64,000 nucleotides of DNA, from positions 712 to 64,711 of the forward strand of contig PLTZ01000026.1 in NCBI GenBank assembly GCA_003164715.1, in the 5' to 3' direction. The DNA comes from Opitutaceae bacterium. Its GTDB lineage: Bacteria; Verrucomicrobiota; Verrucomicrobiia; Opitutales; Opitutaceae. A program made the translations under genes and the position numbers. Within the stretch, counting starts at the first letter, position 1. Every line of letters starts with the position of its first letter. The notes under the pieces were generated by a model. The model was given only the letters and a program-made list of their open reading frames with translations, searched no databases and was not told the DNA's origin. Below, one piece after another: positions 42,480 through 61,920 of the stretch.

Positions 42480-45296
42480 ATGAAGCCATTTCACGATGGG
42501 CGCCTCGTGGTCATCGCGGCCCTTGCGGCGGCGGGATCCGGGTGCATTGCCTCGGCCGCCGCGCGCAGGGACCCCGTGTTTCCTACGGCGTCAGTCGTGG
42601 CGAACCAGCCGATGGGGGTGGCCAAGGGAATCTACCCCGGCCGGGTGGTCTGGGTCCATGATCCGACCGCCGTCAACCAGGCCTGCGTCGTGGACGCCCC
42701 GGGCCACGGGTGGTACCTGAGCGAGAACAACAACCAGGCGGTGATCGACGGGATGGTCTCGATGGCGCTTCGGAACCTCGCCGGGAGCAACAGCGACGCC
42801 GGCGCCTGGGACGCGATCCTCAGGTACCACAACGCGGCCCGCGGAAAGGGGGCAGTGGGGTACACGAGCGGCGAGAAGGTCTTCATCAAGATCAACGCCA
42901 CGAGCGCGTGGGACGGGAATTTCGACCCGGTGGAGCTCACCCCCGACGCCTACATCTCGGAGACCTCCATGGGGCCGGTCCTGAGCGTCCTGCGCCAGCT
43001 GGTCGGCGTCGTCGGCGTGAGCCAGCAGGACATCTACGTCGGCGACCCCATGAAGCACATCTACAAGCACCTCTACGATGTCTGGCACGGGGAGTTCCCG
43101 GGGGTCCACTACCTCGACAACGGCGGCTACGAGAGCCTCGGCCGGGAGTCCGTGGTGCCCAGCACGACGGCCATCATCCACTACTCCGACCGGGGAACGA
43201 TCCTCATGACCGACCCCGGTGACCAGCCGGTCAACCAGGACTACCTCTACACGGTCTTCGAGGACGCGGAGTATCTGATCAACATCCCGATGCTCAAGGG
43301 GCACATGCGGGCCGGGATGACGATGTTCGCCAAGAACCACTTCGGCTCGCAGACTCGCGTCGACGCTTCCCACCTGCACGGCGGGCTCGTGGCCCCCGCC
43401 GAGGCGCCCAACGTGACGCGGGGCACGTACGGGCTGTACCGGGTCCAGGTGGACATCCTGGGGCATTCGCTCCTCGGCGGGAAGAACCTCGTCTACCTGA
43501 TGGACGCCCTGTGGGCGACCGACTACGAGCTGGACGTCCCCCTCAAGTGGCAGATGCCGCCTTTCAACAATGGCTATTCGGCGTCGCTCTTCGCTTCGCT
43601 CGACCCGGTTGCGATCGAGTCGGTCGGCTACGATTTCCTGCGCTCGGAGTTCACGGCGGAGCGCGTCCCCGCCGCCGGCACATATGTGCAGATGCCGGCC
43701 GTGGACGACTACCTCCGCCAGGCCGCGGACTCCGCGAACTGGCCGGTCACGATCATGTACGACCCGGACAACTCCGGCCTGCCGCTCGGGAGCCTCGGCA
43801 CGCACGAGAACTGGAACAACGCCGCGAGCATGCAGTATTCAAGGAACCTCGACCCGGCGGGTACCGGCATCGAGCTCATCCAGGCCGGCCAGAACACCCG
43901 GACCGAGCGGCTCGCGGACCAGACGGCGGGCACGGGCGGCACGGCGGCGTTCTCCGTCGTGGCCATTGGGACAACCCCGCTCACCTACCAGTGGCAGCGG
44001 CAGGCGGCGGGGAGCCAGGGGTGGACCAACCTTAGCGACGGCGCGACCTACGCGGGGTCGACCACGAGCACGCTCACCGTGAGCGGTGCGGCGCTGCAGA
44101 TGAACGGCGACCAGTTCCGCTGCGTGGTCACAAGCGCAGTGGGCCCCAGCGTGACGTCGAACGCGGCCGTGCTCGACGTCGTGATCGTGCCGACGATCCT
44201 CCTGCAACCCGCCTCCTGCGCGGCGGGTGCGGGAGCCCGGGTCCTGTTCTCGGTGCTTGCGACCGACCCGAGCGCGCTCAGCTACCAGTGGCTCAAGGAC
44301 GACGCGGATATTCCTGGGGCCACGGCGGCCGTTCTCGCCCTCCCGAGCGTCGGAGCCGCAGACGCGGGGGTCTACACGGTGTACATTCGCAACGCCACGG
44401 GAGGCTCGATCACCACTGCCGGTGCCGTGCTTGCGGTGAGCGCCCAGGCGTTCGCGGCGCCCCCATCGGCGCTAACCAACATCTCGACCCGCGCCCAGGT
44501 CGGCACGGGCGCCGGAATCATGATCGCGGGCTTTGTCGTGGGCGGGACCGGCGCCAAACCGCTTCTCATCCGCGCTGTCGGACCGGCCCTCACGGGCTTC
44601 GACCCCGTGGGCCTGAACGCCGGCGTGGTGCTCGCCAACCCCGTGCTTCAGCTCACCAAGTCCGACGGGACGGCGCTTCTTTCCAACGAGGGCTGGGGGG
44701 GCGATCCGGCCATCGCGGCCGCGGCGGCCGGCGCGGGCGCCTTTGCGCTTCCTCCGGGCAGCTCGGACGCCGCCATGGTCGTCACCCTTCCCCCGGGCGC
44801 CTACACGGCCCTCGTGACCGGCAAGAACGGAGCCACCGGAGTTGCCCTGGTGGAGGTCTACGACCTGGACACCTCGGCGGCCTCGCGCCTGGTCAACATT
44901 TCGACCCGAGTCCAGGCAGGGACCGGCGCGCACTCGCTTATCGCCGGGTTCGTGGTGGCGGGCTCTGGTGCGCGCAACGTGCTCGTTAGGGCCGTGGGGC
45001 CCTCCCTGACCCCGTTCGACCCGACCGACTTCGGGCCCGCGGTCGTGCTTGCCGACCCGCAGCTGGAGCTGACCGGGCTCAGCGGACAGGTGCTCGGGTC
45101 GAACGACGACTGGTATTCGGACAATGGCGCGGCGATCGCCGCGGCCGCCGCCGCCGTCAACGCATTCACCTTGGAAGTCGGCTCCAAGGACGCCGCCCTG
45201 CTTTCAAGCCTCGGCCCCGGAGCGTACACCCCCGTCGTCTCCGGCAAGGACGGCGGCACGGGCATCGCGCTTGTGGAGGTCTACGAGGCGCCGTGA
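42480..45296 (+). CDS. Large secreted lipoprotein: DUF362-like domain + two YQW-type Ig-like domains + two C-terminal ~130 aa modules
   Basis: ORF 42366..45296 trimmed to the ATG at 42480 (MKPFHDGRLVVIAALAAAGSGC, lipobox). It has DUF362-like blocks VFIKINATSAW and INIPMLKGHMRAGMTMFAKNHFG. Two Ig-like repeats are present (PLTYQWQRQ..., ALSYQWLKDD...GVYTVYIRN). Two tandem NISTR...LIRAVGP...GAYT...ALVEVY modules follow. Confidence 0.7.
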   Translation: MKPFHDGRLVVIAALAAAGSGCIASAAARRDPVFPTASVVANQPMGVAKGIYPGRVVWVHDPTAVNQACVVDAPGHGWYLSENNNQAVIDGMVSMALRNLAGSNSDAGAWDAILRYHNAARGKGAVGYTSGEKVFIKINATSAWDGNFDPVELTPDAYISETSMGPVLSVLRQLVGVVGVSQQDIYVGDPMKHIYKHLYDVWHGEFPGVHYLDNGGYESLGRESVVPSTTAIIHYSDRGTILMTDPGDQPVNQDYLYTVFEDAEYLINIPMLKGHMRAGMTMFAKNHFGSQTRVDASHLHGGLVAPAEAPNVTRGTYGLYRVQVDILGHSLLGGKNLVYLMDALWATDYELDVPLKWQMPPFNNGYSASLFASLDPVAIESVGYDFLRSEFTAERVPAAGTYVQMPAVDDYLRQAADSANWPVTIMYDPDNSGLPLGSLGTHENWNNAASMQYSRNLDPAGTGIELIQAGQNTRTERLADQTAGTGGTAAFSVVAIGTTPLTYQWQRQAAGSQGWTNLSDGATYAGSTTSTLTVSGAALQMNGDQFRCVVTSAVGPSVTSNAAVLDVVIVPTILLQPASCAAGAGARVLFSVLATDPSALSYQWLKDDADIPGATAAVLALPSVGAADAGVYTVYIRNATGGSITTAGAVLAVSAQAFAAPPSALTNISTRAQVGTGAGIMIAGFVVGGTGAKPLLIRAVGPALTGFDPVGLNAGVVLANPVLQLTKSDGTALLSNEGWGGDPAIAAAAAGAGAFALPPGSSDAAMVVTLPPGAYTALVTGKNGATGVALVEVYDLDTSAASRLVNISTRVQAGTGAHSLIAGFVVAGSGARNVLVRAVGPSLTPFDPTDFGPAVVLADPQLELTGLSGQVLGSNDDWYSDNGAAIAAAAAAVNAFTLEVGSKDAALLSSLGPGAYTPVVSGKDGGTGIALVEVYEAP
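44472..45293 (+). repeat. Tandem duplication of a ~133 aa protein module (copy 1 at 44472-44870, copy 2 at 44889-45293); third copy at 34209-34592
   Basis: Copy 1 reads LTNISTRAQVGTGAGIMIAGFVVGGTGAKPLLIRAVGPAL...PPGAYTALVTGKNGATGVALVEVYDLD. Copy 2 reads LVNISTRVQAGTGAHSLIAGFVVAGSGARNVLVRAVGPSL...GPGAYTPVVSGKDGGTGIALVEVYEAP. The copy in gene 33489..34595 reads LGNLSTRGFVGTGQNILIGGFVIQGGPKLVLIRVLGPGL...EAGAYTTVVTGASGDTGTALVEAYEV. Confidence 0.65.
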
Positions 45297-45358: not shown

Positions 45359-46498
45359 TCAAGGCTGCCGTCCGGCAACCGCGGATTCGCCCGGACCCAG
45401 CAGGCGGGAGAACGATCCCATGGCCTCGGCGAATTCGGCGGGAGCAAAATCGGGCTGCGATTGCGCCAGCTCGAACAGGCGGTCGAGCTGACTGGATACG
45501 CCGGCGCCCCGCTCGGCGGGTGGAAGCGCGCCGACCAGCCGGTCCAGTGCCAGGACCAGACGCTCGGCCCGGTAAGCCTGCTGCAGGGCCGGAATCCCTG
45601 CGTCAAGGAAGTCCCCCTGGGTGGCGGATAGGCGGCGCAGCGCGGTCCAGGTGTCCCGCGGTGTCCAAGCGCGCGCCGCGCGCCTGGCGAGCTGGTCGGC
45701 TGTAGCCATCGTTTCAACGAGCTCGTTGCGCGAAGGGGCGGCCGCGTCGTGTGGAGCGCTGGCGCTTGTCAAGCCACTCCGGTTCGCGAGCCAAGCCAAG
45801 CCTTGCCAAGTCAGCACGGCCCGATCCGAGGCGGCCGAGCCATTGAGCAGGGACCAGCTGGCCTCACGCAACGCCACGGATTGCCCGACACACCACGCCT
45901 GTGCGCCCGCGAAGGGGGGAATTTCCCGCCAGTGCCGGGGCTCGTCCTGGGTCTGGCCGTCGAGCTCGAATACCAAGGTCGGGTGGCGGCCCGAGCGGAC
46001 GATCTCGGGATCAATGTTTTGGTGGCATGCCACACAGGTGTTCGCCCGGGTGTAAAGGTCGTTCAGGTCGCGCATCCCAGCCGCAACCCGGTCGGCATGG
46101 GTCCAGTCGGGGCGGGTGTGCCCCCGGAGCCAGCCGTCGGGCAGCGCGTGGCAGCTGACGCACGACACCCCCTCGGCCGGGTCCGCCCCGGTCCCCGGAG
46201 GCGCGCCGGCCAGGGGTGCGTGGCAGACAACGCAACGCGAGCTTTGCTCGGGGTGGGGGATTCCGAGCGCCTCGCCCATTCGCGCGGCGCGGGCGGTGGC
46301 CAGGGTGGCATAGGAGCGGGAGTGCACATCCCGCTGCGACCAGGTGACAAACTGGCTGCTCTTGTCTCCCGCCCCCCCGTGACAGCTGCTCGCTGAACAG
46401 GAATTCGCCCCCAGGGAAACGGCCTCCGCAGCCCGGACCCTCAAAAGGAGGGCAACACCCAAGGCGAAAATCAATCGATTCTTGTTGGCCGATTTCAT
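45359..46498 (-). CDS. Secreted multiheme c-type cytochrome (cytochrome c554-like N-terminal domain)
   Basis: Signal peptide MKSANKNRLIFALGVALLLRVRAAEA. It has three canonical CXXCH motifs (CVVCH, CVSCH, CVACH) plus an N-terminal CSASSCH (CX4CH-type). The C-terminal ~200 aa are heme-free and helical. Confidence 0.8.
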   Translation of the reverse strand: MKSANKNRLIFALGVALLLRVRAAEAVSLGANSCSASSCHGGAGDKSSQFVTWSQRDVHSRSYATLATARAARMGEALGIPHPEQSSRCVVCHAPLAGAPPGTGADPAEGVSCVSCHALPDGWLRGHTRPDWTHADRVAAGMRDLNDLYTRANTCVACHQNIDPEIVRSGRHPTLVFELDGQTQDEPRHWREIPPFAGAQAWCVGQSVALREASWSLLNGSAASDRAVLTWQGLAWLANRSGLTSASAPHDAAAPSRNELVETMATADQLARRAARAWTPRDTWTALRRLSATQGDFLDAGIPALQQAYRAERLVLALDRLVGALPPAERGAGVSSQLDRLFELAQSQPDFAPAEFAEAMGSFSRLLGPGESAVAGRQP

Positions 46499-46537: not shown

Positions 46538-47902
46538 ATGGTCCGCAAGGTCAGCTCTTCCAGCAGCAAATTGCATGGATTGGGTCCGACCGGGCAACTC
46601 TACAACGAAATGCTAGCGAAAATATTGGATGCGATCGCAGCGCATCCGGCGCTGTACGTCGGGTTGCTGACCGTCTTTTGCTTGGTCCTGCAGGTTTTCC
46701 TCCTGGGCGCGCAGGGCGTCGGCCGGATGCTCGACGATCGCAAGCGGGCCGTACTCGAGCGCCGCCGCCTGGAATTGGAGATCGAGAAGGCCCGCCTGCA
46801 CATCAAGGCGGCGGAGGAGGCCAAGCAGGCGTGGAATGGGGTCCGCAAATTCGCGGTCGCCCGGAAGATGCTGGAGTGCGCGGACACCTTCTCCTACTAC
46901 CTCGAGCCCCACGACCGTCGGCCGCTGCCGGCCTTCAAGCCGGGGCAGTACCTGACCTTCCATCTCAACGTCCCGGGTGCCAGCAAGCCGATCGTGCGGT
47001 GCTACTCGCTCTCCGACATGGCGCGGGCCACGCACTACCGGGTCACGATCAAGCGCTGCGCGGCCCCGGAGGGCTCGCCGCACCCGCCGGGCGTCGGGTC
47101 CTCCTTCTTCACCGACCAGGTCAAGGTGGGCGACATCCTGGATGTGAAGGCCCCCAGCGGCCATTTCTTCCTCGACATCGAGAAGGACCGGCAGGTCGTG
47201 CTCATCTCGGGCGGGGTGGGCGTCACCCCGATGATGGCCATGGCGCAGGCCCTGAAATACGCGGGCTCGACCCGCGAGATCTGGTTTTTCCACGGCGCCC
47301 GCAACACCAAGGACCACATGATGCGGGAGGAGATGGCCGCGCTGGCGGCCGACTACGAGCATCTCCGAATGCACATCTGCTATTCCAAGCCGCTCGAAAC
47401 CGACGTGATGGGACGGGATTACCAGCACGCCGGGCGGGTGACGGTGGAGCTGTTCAAGCAGCTCCTCCCCTCGAACAATTACGATTACTTCCTCTGCGGC
47501 CCCGGACCCTTTATGGAGACGATCACGGAGGACCTGCGCAAATGGGGCGTCCCGGACGCCTGGGTGCATTTCGAGGCCTTTGGCCCCGCCTCGGTCAAGC
47601 GCACGGCCAAGCCCGAGACCAAGGTGGGGGTAACGGTGCCTCCAATGGGCGGGATCGACGTCACCTTTGCGAAATCCGGCCGCACCCTCACGTGGCAGGG
47701 TTCCGGCCTGTCGCTCCTGGACCTGGCCGACGAGAACCAGATCAAGATCGACGCGGGCTGCCGCGCGGGAAACTGCGGCTCCTGCCTCGTGGCCATTAAA
47801 TCGGGCACGGTGGAGTATCTCGGGGCGCACGCCGACGTCGAGGACGGATCCTGCCTGGCCTGCGTCTGCCGACCCGCCTCCGCACTCGTCATTGACGCAT
47901 AA
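46538..47902 (+). CDS. Membrane-anchored FNR-type flavoprotein reductase with C-terminal plant-type 2Fe-2S ferredoxin domain
   Basis: N-terminal TM helix (ALYVGLLTVFCLVLQVFLLGA) followed by a coiled coil. It has the FAD motif RCYSLS, the NAD(P)H motif LISGGVGVTPMM, and CGPGPFM. The 2Fe-2S motif is CRAGNCGSC (CX4CX2C) plus a distal CLAC. An alternative start at 46610 (MLAKIL) is possible. Confidence 0.8.
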   Translation: MVRKVSSSSSKLHGLGPTGQLYNEMLAKILDAIAAHPALYVGLLTVFCLVLQVFLLGAQGVGRMLDDRKRAVLERRRLELEIEKARLHIKAAEEAKQAWNGVRKFAVARKMLECADTFSYYLEPHDRRPLPAFKPGQYLTFHLNVPGASKPIVRCYSLSDMARATHYRVTIKRCAAPEGSPHPPGVGSSFFTDQVKVGDILDVKAPSGHFFLDIEKDRQVVLISGGVGVTPMMAMAQALKYAGSTREIWFFHGARNTKDHMMREEMAALAADYEHLRMHICYSKPLETDVMGRDYQHAGRVTVELFKQLLPSNNYDYFLCGPGPFMETITEDLRKWGVPDAWVHFEAFGPASVKRTAKPETKVGVTVPPMGGIDVTFAKSGRTLTWQGSGLSLLDLADENQIKIDAGCRAGNCGSCLVAIKSGTVEYLGAHADVEDGSCLACVCRPASALVIDA

Positions 47903-49626
47903 TGAGCAAATCGAATGCAGGCCTGAACCGGCCCAAGCGCTGGGATTTCGCGTTCAGCGATGAGATGTCCGACCAATTGGTGGACCGCATCATGCAGATG
48001 GCACCCTTCAGGGACATGGACCCGGAGGGCTTCCCCCGCTCGGCCCAGCTGCCGGACATCCTGAAGAACGATGCGCGCCTGCGGGTCTTCGAGCCCGGCG
48101 AGATTGTCGTCCGGCAGGGGGACTACGGCAACAGCGCCTTCATGGTCTTGACCGGGTCGGCGGAGGTCGTGCTCAGCCCCGGCCTGCCGCCCCGGCTGGA
48201 GGGCCGCAGCGAGCCCAAGCGGAAGCGATGGCTTCACCTGCTGGGCCAGTTTATCGGTAACTCGCGCGAGGACGAGGTGGTCCGGACCTCTTCCGCGCGG
48301 CCGGCCGGCGTGGCGCCGTCGGCCCAGGGGACGGCGCGGGGCGTGATCCTCCAGGACGTTCCGCGGGTCCTGAGCGGGCAGCGCACCGCGACGATCCGGG
48401 AGAGGGATTTTTTCGGGGAGATCGCCGCGCTCTCGCGGCTGCCCCGGACCGCGACCATCTTGGCCGGGGTCCAGGGGGCGGAGATGCTCGAGCTCCGCTG
48501 GCAGGGGCTGCGCGACCTGATGCGAAACGCTCCGCAGCTGCGGCGGTTCATCGACGGGATCTACCGCGAGCGGGCCCTGTCCACGTTCCTGGACGCGTTG
48601 CCCTTCATCAAGTACCTGAGCCCTGAGGCCAAGCAGGAGCTTATGGACGCCACCCAGTTCGAGACCTATGGGGAATACGACTGGTCCGGCGACTACAAGC
48701 AGCTGATCAAGAAGGGTGCCTCCGCAGCCCAGGAACCGACCATCGCGGTCGAGGGCGACTATCCCAACAGCGTCGTCATTGTCCGCGCCGGGTTCGGTCG
48801 CCTGACCCAGCGCTACGGCAACAGCCACCGCACCCTCAACTATCTCGGCTCTGGCAAGATGTACGGCTTCGACGAGATCGCCCACAACTGGCGCGAGCCG
48901 AACCACCACGTGCCGCTGCAGTACACCCTGAGGGTGATCGGCTACACCCACGTCGTAGTGATCCCGGCCGCGGTGGTCGAGCGACTGGTGCTGCCCGTCC
49001 TCCCCAAGTCGTCGCTGCCGCCCCTCATCCCCCAGGACCGGCGGACCCGGCCGCGGTTCGAGCCCGCCGCCGGCGACGCCGCCGGGCCCAGGATCCCGCA
49101 GGACGTGATGGAATTCGTCACCCAGGGCCGGTTCTTCAACGGCACGAAGACGATGGTGATCGACCTGGACCGCTGCACGCGGTGCGACGACTGCGTTCGG
49201 GCCTGCGCCGATACGCACGACAACAACCCTCGCTTCCTCCGGTATGGCCCCATCCATGACAACCTGATGATCGCCGAGGCGTGCATGCACTGCGCCGACC
49301 CGGTGTGCATGATCGGTTGCCCCACGGGCGCGATTCACCGGGATACCTTTGCCGGGAGCGTGGTGGTGAACGCCGACACGTGCATCGGCTGCTCCGCCTG
49401 CGCCAACAACTGCCCCTACAAGGCAATCCGGATGGTGGAGGCCCGCGACGCGGACGGGGAGATCCTCGTGGCCAGCGACTCGAATCCCATCCACAAGGCC
49501 ACCAAGTGCGATCTCTGCGTCGACCAGTTCGGCGGTCCGGCCTGCGAGCGCGCCTGTCCTCACGACGCCCTCACGCGGATCAACCTCAACACCACGCACG
49601 AACTGGCCCGGTGGCTGCAGCGATGA
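47902..49626 (+). CDS. Cyclic-nucleotide-binding-domain protein fused to a DmsB/HybA-like four-cluster 4Fe-4S ferredoxin domain (cytoplasmic)
   Basis: The first cNMP domain is FEPGEIVVRQGDYGNSAFMVLTGSAEV...FFGEIAALSRLPRTATILA. A second degenerate cNMP-like domain follows. Four Cys motifs are present: CTRCDDCVRAC, CMHCADPVCMIGCP, CIGCSACANNCP and CDLCVDQFGGPACERACP. There is no signal or TAT peptide. The start overlaps the upstream stop (TAATG). Confidence 0.8.
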   Translation: MSKSNAGLNRPKRWDFAFSDEMSDQLVDRIMQMAPFRDMDPEGFPRSAQLPDILKNDARLRVFEPGEIVVRQGDYGNSAFMVLTGSAEVVLSPGLPPRLEGRSEPKRKRWLHLLGQFIGNSREDEVVRTSSARPAGVAPSAQGTARGVILQDVPRVLSGQRTATIRERDFFGEIAALSRLPRTATILAGVQGAEMLELRWQGLRDLMRNAPQLRRFIDGIYRERALSTFLDALPFIKYLSPEAKQELMDATQFETYGEYDWSGDYKQLIKKGASAAQEPTIAVEGDYPNSVVIVRAGFGRLTQRYGNSHRTLNYLGSGKMYGFDEIAHNWREPNHHVPLQYTLRVIGYTHVVVIPAAVVERLVLPVLPKSSLPPLIPQDRRTRPRFEPAAGDAAGPRIPQDVMEFVTQGRFFNGTKTMVIDLDRCTRCDDCVRACADTHDNNPRFLRYGPIHDNLMIAEACMHCADPVCMIGCPTGAIHRDTFAGSVVVNADTCIGCSACANNCPYKAIRMVEARDADGEILVASDSNPIHKATKCDLCVDQFGGPACERACPHDALTRINLNTTHELARWLQR

Positions 49627-50450
49627 GGGTGCGCCGGCTCTTGAACCGCCTTTCCTACCCGGTCTGCTTCCTCATGGCCGGCGCCGCGGCGCTTTGGGAG
49701 TTCCCGCGGGCGCGGACGGCCTATCCGCGGCTGGACTACTTGACCGGCTGGTTGCTGATGGCGGCGGTGCTCTTTCTCACCGCCTATAACGGCAGGAAGA
49801 AGATTGCCTTCCTGCCCCTCGCCAGCTCGCGGGCCTGGCTGCGCGTCCATGCGTGGCTCGGCATGCTGACCGGCCTCGTTTTTTTCCTCCACACCCGCTG
49901 GCGGGCGCCCTCCAGCCCCTTCGAGCTCGCCCTGGCCGCCCTATTTGTCGCCGTGACCCTGAGCGGGCTGGTCGGCTGGGGGCTCTCGCGCATCCTGCCG
50001 GGACGCCTCACCACCGCCGGCGGCGAGGTGCCCTACGAGAGGATTCCCGTGATCCGGCGTGCGCTGCGGGAAAGGGCCCAGGAGCTGGTCCTCGAGGTCG
50101 TGCCGACGGCGGGGACCACGACCCTGGCGGATTTCTACGCCGCCCGGCTCAGTCCGTTCTTTTCCGGCCCGAAGGGCTTCGCCTCGCACCTGTTCGGCTC
50201 GGCCCGGACCCTCAAGGGTCTCTTGACCGACATCGACCAGGTGAAGATGCACCTCGGCGACCACGAGAAGTCGGCCGCCATCGAGCTGGCCGCCCTCGTC
50301 CGTGAGAAGGACGCACTCGACCTGCACCGCTCGGTCCAGCTGGTCCTGAAGGGCTGGCTCTTCGTGCACATACCGTTGACCTACGGGTTGCTCGCCTTCG
50401 TTGCAGTCCACGTGGTGCTGGTCTACTCGTTTGCCGGGGGGGCGCGATGA
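49623..50450 (+). CDS. Polytopic membrane protein with conserved-looking His in TM helices (possible b-heme/ferric-reductase-like transmembrane electron carrier)
   Basis: ORF 49281..50450 trimmed to the ATG at 49623, which overlaps the upstream stop (ATGA). It has about 5 TM helices. Histidines lie inside or next to helices: WLRVHAWLGMLTGLVFFLHTRW, WLFVHIPLTYGLLAFVAVHVV. The function is inferred, not recognised. Confidence 0.55.
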   Translation: MRVRRLLNRLSYPVCFLMAGAAALWEFPRARTAYPRLDYLTGWLLMAAVLFLTAYNGRKKIAFLPLASSRAWLRVHAWLGMLTGLVFFLHTRWRAPSSPFELALAALFVAVTLSGLVGWGLSRILPGRLTTAGGEVPYERIPVIRRALRERAQELVLEVVPTAGTTTLADFYAARLSPFFSGPKGFASHLFGSARTLKGLLTDIDQVKMHLGDHEKSAAIELAALVREKDALDLHRSVQLVLKGWLFVHIPLTYGLLAFVAVHVVLVYSFAGGAR

Positions 50451-52156
50451 GCCAGGGCAAGGTTCCGTCCCCCCATTTCGACGATTCGCGCTATGAGCGG
50501 CCGAACAAGGGCTGGCTGTGCGGCCACACCTGCGAAGGCTGCCCCTGCCGGATCGGGCCGAGCCCGAAGGGCCAGTGCCGCGCGACGACCGAGTGCACGC
50601 CGCGGCTCGTCCTCAAGCCCGGGGAAACGAAGGGGACCTGGGCCTGTACCCGGCAGGCGGACTGGGGCGGGCCCTGCGAGCCGGGCCCGTTGCCGGACGG
50701 GCAATGCTGCCGTCAGATTGAGCGGTGCCGGCCCGTGCGCAGCCTGCGCAAGCGCCGGGGCCTCGTGGTCGCGGCGGTCCTGGCCGTCTGCCTGGGCATC
50801 CTCATGATCGGGCTCTCCTGGCCGCTGCGGGCCTCCTTCATCAGCCCCCGCCCGCTGTCCGAGCACCATTCCGGGGCCGCTTTCGCGCGCATAGGCAAAA
50901 ACCCCGCCGACCAGGGCTGCGCGCATTGTCACGGCAACGCCAATGCCAGGTTCGGCGAGCTGGTCTTCGCGGCGGTGGCGGCTTCCCGGACCTCCCTCCG
51001 GTTCTCCGAGCTACCCTCCGGCCATCCCACGGACTTCTCCGCGATGGACCGGTCCTGCCTCGCCTGCCACGCGGCCAAGTCGTTCCACCATGCCAATGTG
51101 GCGGCGAACGACTCCTGTTCAATCTGCCACCGCGAGCACCAGGGCGGCGGCCCGATGGCGGCGGTCACGCCCGCCAACTGCGTCGGGTGCCACGGCGACG
51201 CGGTGCAGATGGCCGCCGCCCGGGAAAAGGGGCGACTCCTGCCCGCGGCGCTCCTGGCGCCGCGGTTGCCGCCCGGGGTGATCGTCCCGCCGGTTCCCCG
51301 GCCATCGACCGGCTACACCGAGGTCATCACCAGTTTCGCCGTCGACCACCCGGAATTCCGGGTGCTCCGCGACCATATTCCGGACCCGAATACCCTGCGG
51401 TTCAACCACCGGCTGCATCTGGGCGGCTCCGACATCCCGCTGGTGAACGGCCGGCCGCTCGACTGCGCCTTCTGCCACGCCCCGGATGCTTCCGGCGCGT
51501 TCAAGAAGCCCGTGCCCTTCGAGACGGCCTGCAGGGTCTGCCATGACCTCAGCTTCGACGAGCACAATCCCGGCCTCGTCCTGCCTCACGGGGACCCGGC
51601 CATCGTGCGCGCCTTCCTGCGGAGCTTGCCCGTGCAGTACGCCGATTACGCGAACCGAAGGCTGGGCCTCGGCGGCAAGGACCAGATCGACGCCTTTGTC
51701 CGGTCCCAGGTGCGGTCCCTGCGGGAGCGGGCGCGCAGCGGTGAGGACCTCGAACAAGTGGTGTTCCTGAGCACGATGGCGAAGGGTCCGGTGCCAGGCA
51801 TCGCCGGTTCCGGAGTGGTCGGGCGGACCCGGTTCTCCGGCTGCGCGCTTTGCCACCAGGTCTCCTGGCGGGGAGGCGCGGCGGTTCCGATCGTGGCGGC
51901 GCCCCGGCCGCCGGACCGGTGGCTACCCGGAGCCCGTTTCAGCCATGCCTTCCATGAATCGGTCGCCTGTGCGGATTGCCACGCCGCGGCGAAGAGCGAG
52001 CGAACCTCCGACGTGCTGATTCCGACGCAGCAGAGCTGCGTCCGCTGCCACAGCCCCAATGGCGGGGTCGCAGATTCCTGCACGACCTGCCATACGTTCC
52101 ATAACCCGCCGCCCGCGTCTCCGGCCGCCAGGACGCTCGCGACCTCGCAGCCTTGA
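50447..52156 (+). CDS. Membrane-anchored decaheme c-type cytochrome with Cys-rich N-terminal (cytoplasmic-side) domain
   Basis: It has ten CXXCH motifs: CAHCH, CLACH, CSICH, CVGCH, CAFCH, CRVCH, CALCH, CADCH, CVRCH, CTTCH. The N-terminal ~100 aa contain 11 Cys (WLCGHTCEGCPC...QCCRQIERC) ahead of RKRRG and one TM helix (LVVAAVLAVCLGILMIGLSW). The start overlaps the upstream stop (ATGA). Confidence 0.85.
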   Translation: MSQGKVPSPHFDDSRYERPNKGWLCGHTCEGCPCRIGPSPKGQCRATTECTPRLVLKPGETKGTWACTRQADWGGPCEPGPLPDGQCCRQIERCRPVRSLRKRRGLVVAAVLAVCLGILMIGLSWPLRASFISPRPLSEHHSGAAFARIGKNPADQGCAHCHGNANARFGELVFAAVAASRTSLRFSELPSGHPTDFSAMDRSCLACHAAKSFHHANVAANDSCSICHREHQGGGPMAAVTPANCVGCHGDAVQMAAAREKGRLLPAALLAPRLPPGVIVPPVPRPSTGYTEVITSFAVDHPEFRVLRDHIPDPNTLRFNHRLHLGGSDIPLVNGRPLDCAFCHAPDASGAFKKPVPFETACRVCHDLSFDEHNPGLVLPHGDPAIVRAFLRSLPVQYADYANRRLGLGGKDQIDAFVRSQVRSLRERARSGEDLEQVVFLSTMAKGPVPGIAGSGVVGRTRFSGCALCHQVSWRGGAAVPIVAAPRPPDRWLPGARFSHAFHESVACADCHAAAKSERTSDVLIPTQQSCVRCHSPNGGVADSCTTCHTFHNPPPASPAARTLATSQP

Positions 52157-52173
52157 AACGGGGCCTTGTCGCA

Positions 52174-54345
52174 ATGTCGGTCGTCCTACTGCTGGTCGCC
52201 TGCGCACACGTGGCGTCAGAGGCCGGCAAGCCGCGGCCAAGGGCCCGCCAGCGGCCGAGCGAGGGCCCTCCCCCGGCGGAGCCCGGGACGGTCCGCCTTG
52301 ATCCCGGGGCGCCATTGCCGCCGTTGCCCCCGGTGTCGGGCCTGCCGCCCCTCCACGTGGTGAGGGTGCCGGAAGGGCGGGCGCAGCCGGGCACCCAGTT
52401 CAACCCTGATCCCGGCGCCTCCGGGCTGGCGACCCCCGCACCGGAACCGCCCCTCTTTACCACTTGGACGGGCGAGGACCTCGTTGCGTCCGCACCGATC
52501 CCGACCGCGCAGGGCGACCTGTACCGCGCCCAGATCGAGCCGGCGCCGGCGGCGACTCCCACGGTTCCCTTTGGGACGGATCCCCTGCCGCCGGCACTGA
52601 AGCTGCCGCGGCCGGGCGTGAAGGCCAACGAGTACATTCCCACGAACTGGCAGGCGCCGGACCACTATTCCCCGGTCGACCCCAGCGCCGAGTACCCCGG
52701 GGCCGAGCTGGTCCGCGACCGATGGTCGGTCGGTTACCAGCCGTGGCGCCGGTACTCCGTCGGCAATCCCGAGGAGATGCCCTATTTCTTCCCGGCCCCA
52801 GCGCTGTGGCACTTTTACCGCCAAAGCCGACTGAAGGGCGATGTGCCGATTCGGGGCCCGGACCTTTTCCTTCGGCTCACCGCCGCCGAGTCGCTGACCG
52901 CGGTGGAAGCCCGGGTGCCCGTTCCGGGCGGCGAGGCGCGGGCGGTCCCGGGCGGCCCCGATTTCTTCGGCGGGAGCACGGAGCGGTTCGTTGAGTCGGA
53001 CTTTGCCTTTGAGGCCGACCTTTTCCGGGGTGACACCGTGTTCCAGCCCTCCGATTGGCTGGTGCACCTGAAGACGGTCATCGACTTTAACCACCTTGAT
53101 TTTCGCGAGACGTGGCGGGAGGACCCTGGGGCGAAGTCCGGCGCCGGCGAGGACACCGTGGTCGCACCCACCACCCGGAATCGAAACTATTTCGCCCTGG
53201 AGGAGGCGTTTGTGGAGAAGCACCTGACGAACCTCTCGCCCAATTTTGATTTTTCCTCGGTTCGCATCGGCAACCAGCACTTCAACAGTGATTTCCGGGG
53301 TTTCGTATTCAACGACACCGACTTCGGCGCCCGGCTGTTTGGCAACTACGACTCCAATCGGTGGCAGTACAACCTGGCGCTCTTTGACCTGCGGGAGAAG
53401 GATGCGGATTCCGGACTCAACACCCTGCGGCGCCGGGGCCAGCTAGTCGCGGTGGCCAATTTATACCACCAGGATTCGTGGCTTCCGGGCTATACCACAG
53501 AGGTCAGCGTGCTCGCCAGCTTTGACCAGGGCGACCCGTACGCCGACGACAATGGCTTGATGGTGCGCCCGGCGCAGCTGGGCGCGGCGCGGCCGCACCG
53601 GGTCGAAAGCTACTACCTCGGTTGGACCGGCGAGGGCCACCTCGGCCGCTGGAACCTCACCGACGCCCTCTACCTGGCCACCGGCCGGGATGATTTCAAC
53701 AGCCTCTCGGGCCAATCCGAGGATATCCTCGCCGGGATGGCGGCGGTGGAGGTCAGCTATGACCGCGACTGGCTCCGGTACAAGGCGGTGGGCTTCTTTG
53801 CCTCCGGCGACCAGCACACCCGCGGCGATCTGGCGACCGGATTTGACTCGATCGACGACGACTCCAATTTGGCCGGCCCGTTCAGCTACTGGCTGCACCA
53901 GAGTTTCAACGCCTCAGGTTCCGGCCTGAGCCTCAAGCAGCCGGCGAGCCTCCTGCCGGACGTGCGCGCTGGCGCCGCGGGGGAGGGCGAGGCCAATTTC
54001 GTCAACCCGGGACTGCTTCTGGCTGGCCTCGGCGCGGAGGCGGACCTGACGCCCAGGCTGCGGGCCTTCGCCAACGCCAATTACCTTTGGTTCGATGCCA
54101 CCGACCCGATCAGGACCCTTTTGCCGGGCAGCGTGGTGTCCCCGAACATCGGCACCGACCTGAGCATGGGATGCCAGTGGCGGCCCTTCCTGATCAGCAA
54201 CGTGGTCCTTTCCGCTGGGTGCGGCTTCCTGCTGCCGCAGGCCGGCTTCAAGGCGATGTACCGGACTCTGCCACCGCCGGAGCGAGGAGTCGGGGTTGAC
54301 GATTTCCTCTACAGCGCGATCCTCGCCGCCACGTTCACCTACTAG
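52174..54345 (+). CDS. Putative outer-membrane beta-barrel protein (porin/alginate-export-like), lipoprotein-type signal
   Basis: MSVVLLLVACAH gives a lipobox (LVAC). A Pro-rich ~150 aa linker is followed by long amphipathic beta-like sequence (SVRIGNQHFNSDFRGFVFND, WQYNLALFDL, YYLGWTGEGHLGRWNLTDALYL, ANANYLWFD). The C-terminus AILAATFTY has the aromatic-terminal OMP signature. An alternative TTG start at 52153 overlaps the upstream TGA. Confidence 0.6.
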   Translation: MSVVLLLVACAHVASEAGKPRPRARQRPSEGPPPAEPGTVRLDPGAPLPPLPPVSGLPPLHVVRVPEGRAQPGTQFNPDPGASGLATPAPEPPLFTTWTGEDLVASAPIPTAQGDLYRAQIEPAPAATPTVPFGTDPLPPALKLPRPGVKANEYIPTNWQAPDHYSPVDPSAEYPGAELVRDRWSVGYQPWRRYSVGNPEEMPYFFPAPALWHFYRQSRLKGDVPIRGPDLFLRLTAAESLTAVEARVPVPGGEARAVPGGPDFFGGSTERFVESDFAFEADLFRGDTVFQPSDWLVHLKTVIDFNHLDFRETWREDPGAKSGAGEDTVVAPTTRNRNYFALEEAFVEKHLTNLSPNFDFSSVRIGNQHFNSDFRGFVFNDTDFGARLFGNYDSNRWQYNLALFDLREKDADSGLNTLRRRGQLVAVANLYHQDSWLPGYTTEVSVLASFDQGDPYADDNGLMVRPAQLGAARPHRVESYYLGWTGEGHLGRWNLTDALYLATGRDDFNSLSGQSEDILAGMAAVEVSYDRDWLRYKAVGFFASGDQHTRGDLATGFDSIDDDSNLAGPFSYWLHQSFNASGSGLSLKQPASLLPDVRAGAAGEGEANFVNPGLLLAGLGAEADLTPRLRAFANANYLWFDATDPIRTLLPGSVVSPNIGTDLSMGCQWRPFLISNVVLSAGCGFLLPQAGFKAMYRTLPPPERGVGVDDFLYSAILAATFTY

Positions 54346-54364
54346 GGCCGAAGCCACCCCCGTG

Positions 54365-57300
54365 ATGCCCCCGTCCCTGATGCCCGCCGGATTCCTCGCC
54401 CGCCTGATTGGAGCGGTGCTTGGCGTGGCCGTGGCCGGGAGCGTCCTTGCATCCAAGACGGCCGGCGCCAGTGACGAACCCGGGGTGTCCATCTTCGGGC
54501 CGCCGGTCTCTGTGCCGCGCGACGCCCGCGCGGACGGGGCCGCGCTCCCGCCGCCGAAGGAGCGCAACTGGATCGACCAGACTCCGGAGGCGGCGCGCCG
54601 GAAGAGCGCAGGCTGCCTGGAATGTCACTCCGGGGTGGAGACCATGCACTCCTCGCCCGACGTGGTGCTGGGCTGCGTCGACTGTCACGGCGGAGACCCG
54701 ACGCCCGGGCTGACCCAGCGCAAGGCCCACGTCAGACCGCTGAACCCGGTATTTTGGGAAAGTTCAGCCAAGCCGGCCGACTCCTCGGTCCTGCTGAACC
54801 ACGAATCTCCCGATTTTATCCGTTTCGTGAACCCGTCCGACCTGCGGGTCGCCGGGCAAGCCTGCGGTCCCTGCCACGGCGAGATCGTGACCCACGTCGG
54901 CTCGAGCATGATGAACCACGGTGCGATGCTCTGGGGGGCCGCCTTGTACAACAACGGCTCAACCCCGTTCAAGAATTACCGGTACGGCCAGGCGTACGCC
55001 GGCAATGGCGAGGCGCTGCGCCTTGAGAGCCCCATCCCCGTGACCCCGGAGATGACCATCCTGCACGGCCTGCTTCCCTTCCTGGAGCCGCTGCCGCGCT
55101 TCGAGGCCAGCCAGCCCTCCAACATCCTCCGCGTCTTCGAGGAGGGCCAGCAGAAGCAGCTGGCCCTCGGCAACCCCGACCCCGAGGATTCCCCGGGACG
55201 CCCGGCCCACCGCCTGTCCGAGCGTGGGCTCGGAACGCTCAACCGGATCGACCCCGTGTTCCTCAACCTCCAGAAGACGCGCCTCAACGATCCGCTGCTG
55301 GGGTTCATGGGGACCAACGACCATCCCGGGGATTATCGCTCGTCGGGCTGCGCCGCCTGCCACGTCATCTACGCCAACGATCGGTCCCCGACCAACTCGG
55401 GCTGGTGGTCAAAGTACGGGAACCAGGGCCTGAGCTTCACCGCCGACACGATGATCTCGAAGACGGAGAAGGCGCACCCGATCCGCCATCAGTTCACCCG
55501 CAGTATCCCTTCCAGCCAGTGCATGTCCTGCCACATGCACCAGGGAAACCTCTTCGTTAACCCGTTCCTAGGCTATATCTGGTGGGACCAGGAGAGCGAC
55601 GGCGAGTTCATGTACCCTTCCAAGCAGAAGAACCCCACTGAGAAGGAGATGGCCGACTCCGTGCTCCACAACCCGGAAGCGGCCGCCGCGCGGGGGCTGT
55701 GGGGCGATCCCGATTTCCTCGAAAAGGTCGCCGAACTGAACCCCAAGCTGAAGCAGACGCAGTTCGCGGACTACCACGGGCACGGGTGGGTCTTCCGCGC
55801 GGTGTTCAAGAAGGACCGGGAGGGCACGCTCCTCACCCTGGATGACAAGCCGATCGACCATAACGACCGGGAGAAATTCTCCAAGGCGGTCCACCTGAAG
55901 GACGTCCACCTCGCCCGGGGAATGCAATGCGTGGACTGCCACTTCCAGACAGACGTCCACGGCAACGGGCTCCTGTACGGCGAGCCGCGGGCGGCTACCG
56001 CGATCGAGTGCATCGACTGCCACGGGACGATCGACCGGCGCCCGACCCTGCGCACGAGCGGGAACTCTGGCACCTTCACCGAGGGCCATGTCGAGCCCAT
56101 TGACCTGGCCAAGGGATCGACCCCGTGGGGGCCCCGTTTCTACTGGCAGGGCCCGCGCCTCTTCCAGCGGTCCATGATGTCGCCGAATGTCGTCTGGGAG
56201 GTCCCGCAGACCCGGGACACGATCGACCCCTCCTCCCCGCGGTACAATGCCAAGTCCGCCTATGCGAAGACCCTGCGCAGGGACGGAAGGAGCTGGGGCG
56301 GCGTTCCCACCAAATCCGTGGGGCTCATCACCCCGGAACTCGCGCATGCGAACTCGAACATTTCCTGCGCCATCTGCCACACCTCGTGGGCGACCAGCTG
56401 CTTCGGCTGCCATTTGCCCATGCGGGCCAACAAGGCGGTCGCGGCCAACAAGTTCGAGGGAATCACGACCCGCAACTACACGACCTACAATCCCCAGGTG
56501 GTGCGCGACGACGTGTTCATGCTGGGCCGCGACGCCACCTACAAGGACCACCGGCTCGCGGTCCTGCGGTCGTCGAGCGCCGTAATCGTGGGCTCCCAGA
56601 ACTCCAACCGGGAATGGATCTATGCGCAGCAGCAGACCATTTCCGCCGAGGGCTATTCCGGGCAGGCCTTCAACCCGCATTTTCCCCACACCACCAGCTC
56701 GGTCGGCACGACCAAGAACTGCACCGATTGTCATCTTTCGGCGGCCAATGACAACAATGCCTGGATGACCCAGCTGCTGGGCTTCGGCACGGGAACGGTC
56801 AATTTCTTTGGCCGCTTTGCCTATGTCGCGTCGGGGCCGGCCGGCTTTGACGCCGTCGCCTGGACGGAGGAAGAGGAGCCCCAGGCGGCGATCGGCAGCC
56901 ACCTCCAGCACCTGGCCTATCCCGACAACTATCGGCGGCACGTGGAAACCAACGGCGGCGTGCTGCAGGAATCGTATCACCACGCGGGCGAGGACATCCG
57001 GGATCTCACCATCCGGGGAGAATACCTCTACACCGCCAACGGGCCCGGGGGCTTCGAGGTCTTCGACGTCGCCAACGTGGCCAACAAGGGATTCTCGCAG
57101 CGGATCGTCTCCGCACCGGTGTCGCCGCTCGGCCAGCGGCTCTGGGTCAAGACCAAGTACGCCACCAGCGTGGTCCTGCCGACCACCTTGGGGGTCGACC
57201 CGCTGCGCTCCCACCGGCCGGAAAACGAGGAACAGCCGATCAGCCCCATCTATGGCTACGTCTACGTGACGGACCGCTACGAGGGCCTGGTCACGGTGAT

Positions 57301-58246
57301 GGTGGGAACCCTCCTGGATGGCGATCCGTCGGATAACTTCCTCAAGGAATCCGACGTGACGCGCTTCAACCCGGGAGGGGCCCTGGACGGCGCCACCCAT
57401 GCGTACATGGCCGGTAGCCGCCTCTACGTTACCTGCGACGCCGGGTTGGTCGTGGTCGACATCTTGGACCCGACCAAGCCTCGGATCGTGGGCCGTTCCC
57501 AGGCGGGCGCCCTGCGCCACCCCCGCCGCCTCGCCGTCCAGTTCATGTACGCCTTTGTTTCCGACGACGACGGCGTGAAGGTGTTTGACCTGAGCACCCC
57601 GGATGCCCCCTGCCTGGTGCCCGCCGCCACGGTGCCCCTCCGCGACGCCCAGGGGCTCTATGCCGCTCGCACCTACCTCTACGTTGCCGATGGCGCCGAG
57701 GGCCTGGCAATCGTGGACATCAAGAACCCCGCCGCCGCCCACCTGAGCGAGATCTTCAGTGCCCACGGCGCCCTCAGCGACACCCGCGCCGTGCAAGTGG
57801 GGGCGGTCAACGCGTCCATGTACGCGCTCGTGGCGGACGGAAAGAACGGCCTGCGGGTGCTCCAAATGGTCTCGCCCGAGAACGTCCCCGGCTACATGGG
57901 GTTCAGCCCCCCGCCCAATCCCAAGCTGATCGCCACCTTCCCAACCCGGGGGGCCGCCGTCGCGGTCGGCCGCGGCCTTGACCGTGATCGCGTTGTCGAT
58001 GAATCCGGCAACCAGACGGTGGTCTTCGGGCGCAGGGGCAGCCGGCCCTTGAACGCCGAGGAGTTTGACACCTTCCTGCGCCGTGCGGGCGAGCTCTACC
58101 GGGTGGATGACGTGAAGGTCGTGGATGGCGCCCTGCGTACGAGCGCCGGCGCGACGCTTACGCCCACCGAGACGTTCACGTCCGACGCGCAGACACCCGA
58201 TGCGCCGGAGGAATCGGGCCGGCTCCGGCGGCGGCCTCCGGATTGA
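54365..58246 (+). CDS. Giant decaheme c-type cytochrome fused to a C-terminal LVIVD-repeat beta-propeller
   Basis: ORF 54296..58246 trimmed to the ATG at 54365 (MPPSLMPAGFLARLIGAVLGVAVAGSVLAS, signal/anchor). It has ten CXXCH motifs: CLECH, CVDCH, CGPCH, CAACH, CMSCH, CVDCH, CIDCH, CAICH, CFGCH, CTDCH. From about 56990 there are six LVIVD-type blades: YLYTANGPGGFEVFDV, YVYVTDRYEGLVTVMV, LYVTCDAGLVVVDI, YAFVSDDDGVKVFDL, YLYVADGAEGLAIVDI, MYALVADGKNGLRVLQM. The 920 aa antisense ORF is spurious. Confidence 0.85.
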   Translation: MPPSLMPAGFLARLIGAVLGVAVAGSVLASKTAGASDEPGVSIFGPPVSVPRDARADGAALPPPKERNWIDQTPEAARRKSAGCLECHSGVETMHSSPDVVLGCVDCHGGDPTPGLTQRKAHVRPLNPVFWESSAKPADSSVLLNHESPDFIRFVNPSDLRVAGQACGPCHGEIVTHVGSSMMNHGAMLWGAALYNNGSTPFKNYRYGQAYAGNGEALRLESPIPVTPEMTILHGLLPFLEPLPRFEASQPSNILRVFEEGQQKQLALGNPDPEDSPGRPAHRLSERGLGTLNRIDPVFLNLQKTRLNDPLLGFMGTNDHPGDYRSSGCAACHVIYANDRSPTNSGWWSKYGNQGLSFTADTMISKTEKAHPIRHQFTRSIPSSQCMSCHMHQGNLFVNPFLGYIWWDQESDGEFMYPSKQKNPTEKEMADSVLHNPEAAAARGLWGDPDFLEKVAELNPKLKQTQFADYHGHGWVFRAVFKKDREGTLLTLDDKPIDHNDREKFSKAVHLKDVHLARGMQCVDCHFQTDVHGNGLLYGEPRAATAIECIDCHGTIDRRPTLRTSGNSGTFTEGHVEPIDLAKGSTPWGPRFYWQGPRLFQRSMMSPNVVWEVPQTRDTIDPSSPRYNAKSAYAKTLRRDGRSWGGVPTKSVGLITPELAHANSNISCAICHTSWATSCFGCHLPMRANKAVAANKFEGITTRNYTTYNPQVVRDDVFMLGRDATYKDHRLAVLRSSSAVIVGSQNSNREWIYAQQQTISAEGYSGQAFNPHFPHTTSSVGTTKNCTDCHLSAANDNNAWMTQLLGFGTGTVNFFGRFAYVASGPAGFDAVAWTEEEEPQAAIGSHLQHLAYPDNYRRHVETNGGVLQESYHHAGEDIRDLTIRGEYLYTANGPGGFEVFDVANVANKGFSQRIVSAPVSPLGQRLWVKTKYATSVVLPTTLGVDPLRSHRPENEEQPISPIYGYVYVTDRYEGLVTVMVGTLLDGDPSDNFLKESDVTRFNPGGALDGATHAYMAGSRLYVTCDAGLVVVDILDPTKPRIVGRSQAGALRHPRRLAVQFMYAFVSDDDGVKVFDLSTPDAPCLVPAATVPLRDAQGLYAARTYLYVADGAEGLAIVDIKNPAAAHLSEIFSAHGALSDTRAVQVGAVNASMYALVADGKNGLRVLQMVSPENVPGYMGFSPPPNPKLIATFPTRGAAVAVGRGLDRDRVVDESGNQTVVFGRRGSRPLNAEEFDTFLRRAGELYRVDDVKVVDGALRTSAGATLTPTETFTSDAQTPDAPEESGRLRRRPPD

Positions 58247-61757: not shown

Positions 61758-61920
61758 GGGCGCGAAGGCTTCTGCAAATGGATGGCGTTCACAAGCCCAT
61801 TTTGCAGAAAACTTATTAACTAAATTCAACAATCTAATGACATTGCGCTCACAAACCGTGAGCATTCATTAGTTGTTCCCATGTAATAACCTAACACACT
61901 TACATCCCGCTCGGTGAAAC

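Follow-up and report, generated by a model that had tools for sequence, protein, structure and literature searches.

An Opitutaceae bacterium (assembly GCA_003164715.1, contig PLTZ01000026.1) carries three coupled genes for a flavoprotein reductase, a ferredoxin with cyclic nucleoside monophosphate (cNMP)-binding domains and a membrane protein with paired histidines. Where would electrons entering such a set of proteins go, and could a nucleotide control their flow? The genes occupy positions 46538 to 50450 of a 64,000-nucleotide stretch of this contig, which was analyzed as a whole and is called the window here. An earlier note on this DNA, written from the letters and their reading frames, had described them as an input module leading from NAD(P)H over flavin and iron-sulfur clusters to membrane haems. 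We found that interpretation largely sound but incomplete. On balance, we lean towards reading the three genes as the cytoplasmic and inner-membrane input of a larger extracellular electron transfer (EET) operon, which would export electrons independently of quinones in a manner resembling the NOX and FRE enzymes.

The open reading frames (ORFs) of the three genes were confirmed at exactly the positions given in the note (46538-47902, 47902-49626 and 49623-50450). Their third-position GC contents of 0.88, 0.91 and 0.79, judged against a window GC of 68%, are typical of real genes here. The translational coupling proposed for them was found as well: the reductase and ferredoxin genes meet in TAATG with a 1-nt overlap at 47902, and the ferredoxin and membrane-protein genes overlap in ATGA at 49623-49626. 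The end of the module, which the note had placed at the membrane protein, did not hold. A further ATGA at 50447-50450 links the membrane-protein gene to a gene for a decahaem cytochrome. Four consecutive genes (reductase, cNMP-ferredoxin, membrane protein, decahaem) are thus chained by start/stop codon overlaps, and the functional unit runs past 50450. The region from 45.3 to 58.3 kb comprises one divergent gene and six co-directional genes on the forward strand (third-position GC 0.79-0.91).

The first gene of the chain (46538..47902, forward strand) encodes a 454-aa membrane-anchored reductase of the FNR family, identified by Pfam, by its relatives in the PDB and by motif conservation. Pfam assigned FAD_binding_6 (9.6e-8), NAD_binding_1 (3.3e-20) and Fer2 (1.9e-11), all above cut-off. 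A hydrophobic transmembrane (TM) helix at residues 38-56 (nt 46649-46705) is followed by a charged, poorly conserved linker in place of the coiled coil named in the note, the FAD domain, the NAD(P)H domain and a C-terminal plant-type [2Fe-2S] domain. The N-terminal helix named in the note is therefore present, and it has a counterpart in 66 of 72 homologues. The FNR/2Fe-2S identity is likewise borne out by 73 homologues: RxYS (R154-C-Y-S157), GGxGxxP (GGVGVTP) and CGP (C320-G-P) are at least 98% conserved, and the [2Fe-2S] ligands Cys408/413/416/442 (Cx4Cx2C...C) are 99% conserved. Among solved structures, the reductase module of flavohaemoglobin (3ozu, 1.8e-58) is the best match; phthalate dioxygenase reductase (2pia, 2.4e-23) and NqrF were also found. 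Judged by these matches, the closest relatives of the reductase appear to be NAD(P)H-oxidizing electron donors.

The second gene (47902..49626, forward strand) encodes a cytoplasmic cNMP-binding four-cluster ferredoxin of 574 aa, assigned by Pfam, Cys motifs and Foldseek. When a collection with a single genome for each bacterial or archaeal species was scanned with a pattern, at least 574 stretches encoding a relative of this protein were recovered, and the synteny counts reported here rest on the best 80 of them (species loci). The ferredoxin comprises two cNMP-binding (CNB) domains, CNB-A (~47989-48576) and CNB-B (~48619-48996), a linker of variable length and a 4x[4Fe-4S] domain (~49150-49596). 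In the latter, sixteen Cys are arranged in the motifs CxxCxxCxxxC (C425-435), CxxCx4CxxxCP (C461-473), CxxCxxCxxxCP (C494-504) and CxxCx8CxxxCP (C536-552). All 16 are 100% conserved in 80 sequences, which indicates a set of ligands sufficient for four predicted [4Fe-4S] clusters. The protein also matches Fer4_7 and Fer4_11 (the latter with 39.5 bits against a cut-off of 26.2). The best solved relatives are subunits of aldehyde oxidoreductase (8c0z_C), HDCR (7qv7, HycB3/HycB4) and formate hydrogenlyase (7z0s_B), and ArrB and, lower in the list, NarH (1q16_B) were also matched. No NCBIfam equivalog, DmsB, HybA, NrfC, HydN and AegA included, fits the ferredoxin, as all scored far below cut-off (DmsB, 61 against 214 bits).

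The note had further claimed that this ferredoxin lacks a signal peptide, and we agree. A signal-like hydrophobic N-terminus was not found (the median of the top 15-residue hydropathy within the first 70 aa is 0.45), and nothing places the protein outside the cytoplasm. A conserved RPxRW resembles a twin-arginine motif, but the sequence after it is acidic and non-hydrophobic, with no h-region, and twin-arginine translocation (Tat) export was rejected. The statement that four-cluster ferredoxins are normally Tat-exported was too strong. Signal-less ones are common, for example in formate hydrogenlyase and nitrate reductase, whose four-cluster subunits are cytoplasmic, so that the lack of a Tat signal is in itself unremarkable. 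The twin-arginine-like motif belongs to a conserved RPxRWDxPF (47929-47955) ahead of CNB-A, where it is placed like the inhibitor segment of PKA-R.

The unusual part of the ferredoxin is its N-terminal half, for which the note had proposed two CAP-type cNMP domains. Two such folds span residues ~30-365. Pfam cNMP_binding matches with 3.3e-18 (PF00027, 65.9 bits against a cut-off of 27.5) in three stretches, which correspond to domain A, split by an insertion of ~65 aa, and to domain B. With an AlphaFold2 (AF2) model of poor confidence (predicted local distance difference test, pLDDT, 61.5), built from an alignment of 26 rather similar sequences, Foldseek placed the tandem CNB-A/B domains of PKA-R and PKG at the top (E 8e-16 over ~350 columns). 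Nucleoside-binding, cAMP-independent PKA-R structures were also among the matches. The phosphate-binding cassette is canonical in domain A only. There, FGEIAALSRLPRTATILA (residues 171-188, 48412..48465, forward strand) aligns residue by residue with the PRTAS cassette of Plasmodium PKG (5ezr, chain residues 461-495). The CNB-A cassette is intact: in alignments extending to Planctomycetota and Alphaproteobacteria, G172, E173 and R182 do not vary, and T183 shows a conservation of at least 90%. CNB-B, by contrast, has a longer loop with a non-canonical cassette (YGFDEIAH...TLRVIG). The insertion in CNB-A (~48175-48372) is itself conserved, with L95, P96, G101, R102, Q116, E125 and LQD150-152.

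The third gene (49623..50450, forward strand) encodes a five-TM putative di-haem b protein, a designation based on invariant His and an AF2 model. The ORF lister starts this gene at GTG 49281. Because 75 homologues and the natural fusion described below align from ATG 49623, the sequences support the latter as the probable true start, giving a product of 275 aa with an Arg-rich N-terminus (MRVRRLLNR). The AF2 model, built with 69 diverse relatives, is all-helical and of high confidence (pLDDT 95.2, predicted template modelling score 0.87). TM1-4 comprise residues 2-33, 37-60, 69-91 and 99-131. They are followed by a helical domain of ~120 aa and by a 58-residue helix (213-270) that ends as TM5. 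His76 (49848-49850) and His90 (49890-49892) lie on TM3, and His249 (50367-50369) and His263 (50409-50411) on the helix of TM5. All four are invariant in 76 locus-derived and in 69 diverse database homologues (29-56% identity), and so are W72 and W245. The note had likened the placement of these His pairs to that of b-haem ligands, and both their conservation and their spacing agree with this. The H-x13-H spacing of 14 residues equals four helical turns, or ~21 Å, as is classical where two stacked bis-His b haems span a membrane, and it fits the H-x12-14-H on TM3 and TM5 that forms the bis-histidyl motif defining NOX enzymes (PMC5676040). The repetition of WLxVH-x13-H (49836-49850 and 50355-50369) hints at an internal pseudo-symmetry or duplication of the two predicted haem-binding helices.

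Known families were approached by the membrane protein only below threshold. No Pfam match at threshold and no PDB sequence match was obtained, a profile search of PDB sequences returning coiled-coil noise only. Sub-threshold Pfam likeness was seen to DUF4405, Ni_hydr_CYTB and Ferric_reduct. DUF4405 (PF14358) scored 14.1 bits against a cut-off of 26.7 (E 0.068), and matches with E <5 were obtained in 38 of the 69 relatives (best 2.3e-6), in all cases over TM2-TM3 only. For DUF4405, a membrane protein, haem b has been shown experimentally (PMC11334425). Ferric_reduct (PF01794) reached E 0.78, with weak matches in 14 of the 69 relatives. A Foldseek comparison of the model with the PDB gave a best E of 0.6, to helical sensor domains and ABC transporters, and no NOX or STEAP match. 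Alignment with hhalign to E. coli MsrQ (0.4%), NarI (0.1%) and CybB (<1%) was negative too, in a weak test with single-sequence templates. We do not claim membership of the ferric reductase, cytochrome b561 or NarI families for this protein, only a functional resemblance.

The sidedness of the core can be argued from topology. Since four helices, an even number, precede the 120-aa domain, it lies on the same side of the membrane as the N-terminus, to which the ferredoxin is linked. This compartment is most plausibly the cytoplasm, as the reductase, which depends on NAD(P)H and contains FAD and an Fe-S cluster, has no export signal.

The decahaem cytochrome directly downstream (50447..52156, forward strand), PtdG-like and assigned by its 10 CxxCH, its TM helix and synteny, begins with a segment of ~100 aa. 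After it come RPVRSLRKRRG, a TM helix (residues 105-123) and the ten haem motifs. Because the RKRR-flanked single helix stands before the ten CxxCH, the haem domain must be periplasmic. A role for this protein as a quinol dehydrogenase of the NapC/NirT type was rejected, as no such Pfam match was obtained. The N-terminal segment (50447-50758, residues 1-104) consists of two ~40-aa repeats with 8 Cys conserved in 70 homologues (C25, C34, C44, C50 and C67, C77, C87, C94; pattern W.C...C..GP...G.C.....C.P), to which no Pfam or PDB sequence match was found. Lying on the cytoplasmic side, it could bind a metal or an Fe-S cluster, or serve the ferredoxin as a docking domain.

Three further genes flank the core. 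Upstream, and transcribed divergently, lies a PtdD-like tetrahaem c-type cytochrome (45359..46498, reverse strand) with three CxxCH, one Cx4CH and a signal-like N-terminal helix (haem-motif count and Pfam Cytochrome_C554). Downstream of the decahaem gene, and starting with a TTG that overlaps its stop codon, is the gene for a porin-like outer-membrane protein of 730 aa (52153..54345, forward strand). It has no Pfam match; its assignment derives from its position next to the 1316-aa cytochrome and its match to a cluster reported earlier (PMC5615132), and a lipobox-like LVAC lies near the N-terminus of the product. The last gene (54296..58246, forward strand) encodes a large cytochrome of 1316 aa with an LVIVD beta-propeller (Pfam LVIVD, 1.3e-19) and a partial ExtM-like match, decahaem by haem count and presumed to be an outer-surface reductase. 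Its rule-based start, TTG 54296, overlaps the porin-like gene by 50 nt, and ATG 54365 or 54380 is the more likely true start.

In protein searches, the ferredoxin had more than 5,000 relatives and the membrane protein, among representatives of 50%-identity clusters, ~1,300. The 80 loci belong mostly to Opitutales, Limisphaerales, Verrucomicrobiales/Akkermansiaceae and unclassified Verrucomicrobiota, and include Phycisphaerae, Ca. Uabimicrobium and a marine Alphaproteobacterium, that is, three phyla (Verrucomicrobiota, Planctomycetota, Alphaproteobacteria). The order reductase, ferredoxin, membrane protein, decahaem was seen in nearly all of them, wherever the contig allows, with the decahaem gene directly downstream of the membrane-protein gene in 75 of 80. 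The upstream, divergent tetrahaem gene is conserved in Verrucomicrobiota; in Planctomycetota and Alphaproteobacteria a weak partial tetrahaem match (23-27% identity) lies between reductase and ferredoxin. The porin-like gene adjoins the large cytochrome wherever both were found, and its placement relative to the core varies. One metagenomic locus encodes a fusion protein (P0195, 843 aa, L081:8001-10532) in which the C-terminus of the ferredoxin is joined directly to TM1 of the membrane protein. Near-universal synteny and this natural fusion support the physical coupling of the module that the note had assumed. Of the three findings that the note had named as refuting it (cNMP domains lacking ligand-binding residues in all homologues, no conserved His in the membrane protein, an Fe-S protein placed outside the cytoplasm), none was obtained. 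In L081 the fusion gene is followed by one for a 656-aa multihaem cytochrome, with no reductase gene nearby, and the core may accept electrons from other donors.

From these observations we propose the following path. NAD(P)H would be oxidized by the membrane-anchored flavoprotein, with electrons passing from FAD to the [2Fe-2S] cluster and then along the four [4Fe-4S] clusters of the cNMP-ferredoxin, docked on the cytoplasmic helical domain of the five-TM protein. They would cross the membrane via two bis-His b haems, one held by H76/H249 near the inner face and one by H90/H263 near the outer face, and would be taken over by the membrane-anchored decahaem cytochrome. The tetrahaem cytochrome, the porin-like protein and the surface decahaem cytochrome would follow, with Fe(III), humic substances or another external compound as the final acceptor. 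We favor this outward direction because the reductase is closest to NAD(P)H-oxidizing donors. Electron export from NAD(P)H dissipates membrane potential, as in NOX enzymes, and drains NAD(P)H. Because such a pathway dissipates rather than builds membrane potential, it needs control. The likely switch would be the tandem cNMP module, which resembles PKA-R, is attached through a flexible linker and would respond to cAMP, cGMP or a related nucleotide. In its strongest form, which we put forward tentatively and consider rather unlikely as a whole, the locus would encode a prokaryotic three-component NADPH-oxidase-like machine that bypasses the quinone pool, with the ferredoxin as an allosteric valve operated by cyclic nucleotides.

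Is the ferredoxin in fact gated by a cyclic nucleotide? Neighboring ORFs of the loci were clustered, and in one Verrucomicrobial clade a gene for a CHASE2 and class III adenylate/guanylate cyclase protein (for example L033:16564-18999) lies inside the cluster (9 closely matching loci and one weak match). In that clade, the block between the decahaem and porin-like genes encodes a protein of 340 aa without known function, a FecR-domain protein, the cyclase and an NHL beta-propeller protein (L018:8575-14221, and likewise L019, L020, L021, L025, L033, L034, L041 and L059). It places a predicted cNMP-producing sensor within the operon of that clade. The insertion was probably one evolutionary event, which makes it modest evidence for a cNMP link. 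The electron wire could also be real while the cNMP domains serve as a structural or docking scaffold, or sense another ligand, as trypanosome PKA-R binds nucleosides and CAP domains of the CooA/NtcA type provide further precedents. The non-canonical cassette of CNB-B, the conserved insertion in CNB-A and the nucleoside-binding, cAMP-independent PKA-R structures among the fold matches all point that way, and neither a cyclase nor another regulator was found next to the operon in the window. We nevertheless judge such a role, other than that of a cyclic-nucleotide gate, to be quite possible but less likely than not, as the Gly-Glu and Arg-Thr residues in contact with ribose and phosphate vary little or not at all across three phyla, and a class III cyclase is embedded in the cluster of the one clade.

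The route itself has competitors. Instead of handing electrons from haem b directly to haem c, the five-TM di-haem protein might exchange them with menaquinone or menaquinol, as NarI or HybB-type subunits do, so that either reductase and ferredoxin would act as an NAD(P)H:quinone oxidoreductase or quinol would supply the cytochromes. A four-cluster Fe-S subunit on a di-haem b subunit is indeed the classical layout of NarHI and FdnHI, NarH is among the solved relatives, and the decahaem protein is membrane-anchored like quinol dehydrogenases of the CymA type. To our knowledge, every characterized EET route (CymA, ImcH, CbcL, Ndh2/EetAB) also leaves via the quinone pool. Similarity to NarI was not detectable by hhalign, however, the decahaem protein has no NapC/NirT match in Pfam, and Pfam found neither a NapC/NirT nor an NrfD-type subunit in the cluster. 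The overlap of the membrane-protein and decahaem genes in the window, and their adjacency in nearly all loci, argue for a direct complex. We therefore regard quinone coupling as unlikely. Still less probable, in our view, is inward flow, in which periplasmic or extracellular donors would feed the cytochromes, the b haems and the Fe-S proteins and finally cytoplasmic NAD(P)+ or another acceptor. The arrangement of periplasmic multihaem c, membrane di-haem b and cytoplasmic Fe-S proteins parallels Hmc and Tmc, and all cofactors are reversible in principle. The carriers of a related operon are not known metal reducers (bioRxiv 10.1101/2023.11.21.568154). Such a flow would be opposed by the membrane potential and by the NAD(P)+ couple at -320 mV, with no energy-coupling subunit in the cluster, and the reductase is nearest to reductases that donate electrons from NAD(P)H. 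A FRE-like ferric reductase serving assimilation would work by the mechanism of the proposed path and is indistinguishable from it here.

Several points weigh against quinone-independent, nucleotide-gated export as we propose it. The sole paper that names the module calls its function unknown. The membrane protein has no Pfam, PDB-fold or profile match, so that its putative haem binding is read from the His pattern; for the ferredoxin, the AF2 model is of poor quality (pLDDT 61.5) and the CNB-B domain has no canonical cassette. Linkage to a cyclase is limited to one clade, likely as a single event, and is absent from the window. Furthermore, three loci (L031, L066 and L081) have no reductase gene next to the core, and NAD(P)H is maybe not the sole input; the membrane anchor of the decahaem protein, similar to that of CymA-type quinol dehydrogenases, would allow a parallel input from quinol.

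The genes downstream of the operon, on the reverse strand, seem unrelated to it. They encode a 1139-aa PATR-repeat/PEP-CTERM surface protein (58446-61865) and a glycolate-oxidase-like pair (61921-63243 and 63240-63998; a CCG and 4Fe-4S subunit and a FAD-oxidase C-terminal domain). The window also has a galactanase-like ORF and a sugar transporter-like ORF, both assigned by eye, and encodes a PfkB-family sugar kinase. A 976-aa DUF362/Ig protein (42366-45296) was considered as a conserved partner and rejected: only its C-terminal domain of ~260 aa recurs, in cluster-flanking proteins of three Opitutales loci (L007:105-2468, L004:31-1542 and L045:43-1743). The L007 protein is an NHL-repeat protein. 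NHL propeller proteins neighbor the cluster in 25 of the 80 loci, and the copy in L006 has an HbpS-like domain in addition.

If the proposed path is correct, it would link NAD(P)H directly to outer cytochromes. Should its strongest form hold, the locus would encode the first inner-membrane EET module of that kind and also the first electron wire on which cAMP or cGMP acts directly as a gate. A second-messenger switch on an electron-transfer protein would mean that respiration is controlled in a new way. Opitutaceae-like bacteria that live by fermentation and degrade polysaccharides in anoxic, humic-rich waters would gain an electron sink to Fe(III) or humic substances, and less of the carbon would end in fermentation products and methane precursors. 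Strain IMCC26134 and Ca. Uabimicrobium amorphum are examples of carriers in culture.

How does the locus relate to systems described before? Its nearest counterpart is the ptdABCDEFG operon, named in a 2024 preprint that states its function to be unknown (bioRxiv 10.1101/2023.11.21.568154). It encodes an FAD/NAD(P) oxidoreductase (PtdC), a protein with a cNMP-binding domain and “two 4Fe-4S” (PtdE), a “ferric reductase-like” protein (PtdF), tetra- and decahaem cytochromes and a porin. The list of components is the same as in the window: oxidoreductase, cNMP Fe-S protein, TM protein, tetrahaem, decahaem and porin. The marine Alphaproteobacterial locus (L079) and the Planctomycetota loci follow the order ptdC, E, F, G with 28-51% identity to the window proteins (46-49% between L079 and the three core proteins), and their weak tetrahaem match sits at the position of ptdD. 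By the described components and these related loci, rather than by named Ptd sequences, the window is a Verrucomicrobial variant of the ptd family. It differs in its upstream, divergent tetrahaem gene and in its outer-membrane part, which consists of the 730-aa porin-like protein and the 1316-aa LVIVD decahaem cytochrome instead of PtdA and PtdB; homologues of these two proteins were not found in L079. Also, whereas the preprint credits PtdE with two clusters, the 16 invariant Cys indicate four in the protein studied here.

In mechanism, the NOX/FRE enzymes and the two-component Fre-MsrQ system come closest. There, electrons from an NAD(P)H dehydrogenase of the FNR superfamily move outward over two bis-His b haems on TM3 and TM5, and a periplasmic protein may act as acceptor (PMC5676040, PMC11031084). 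The dehydrogenase of the window is instead a separate, TM-anchored protein with an added 2Fe-2S domain, and a four-cluster ferredoxin is interposed. The membrane protein has five TM helices and not six, carries a 120-aa insert and lacks a fused dehydrogenase domain; it also stays below the Ferric_reduct threshold and has no structural match to NOX or STEAP. The resemblance is thus one of mechanism and not of demonstrated homology. The small polytopic DUF4405, PepSY (FoxB) and MsrQ-like proteins have four conserved His at their center, bind haem b and carry electrons through the cytoplasmic membrane (PMC11334425). In the window protein, by comparison, a large cytoplasmic insert precedes the helix with the second His pair, and the partners are Fe-S and multihaem proteins and not flavinylated ones.

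The ferredoxin shares its four Cys motifs with four-cluster ferredoxins such as HycB/HydN, NarH, DmsB and NrfC (Fer4_11). It differs from them in its fusion to an N-terminal tandem cNMP module of ~370 aa, with no molybdo or Ni-Fe catalytic partner in the cluster. That module has the tandem CNB fold of PKA-R and PKG (in a low-confidence model) and a CNB-A cassette of the PRTAT type as in PKG, but is attached to an electron-transfer domain and not to a kinase, and shows the CNB-A insertion and the non-canonical CNB-B cassette. Hmc and Tmc share the layout of a periplasmic multihaem cytochrome, a membrane b cytochrome and a cytoplasmic Fe-S protein; they use NarI-like and HdrD-like subunits, however, and carry electrons inward. 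Finally, a Verrucomicrobial porin-multihaem cytochrome cluster was reported in 2017 for Opitutus and strain IMCC26134, with a proposed role as an electron sink and with the inner-membrane step left unassigned (PMC5615132). The decahaem cytochrome, porin-like protein and outer cytochrome of the window match this cluster, and strain IMCC26134 is represented among our loci (L010). The module described here is therefore a concrete and very widespread candidate for the inner-membrane step left open at that time.

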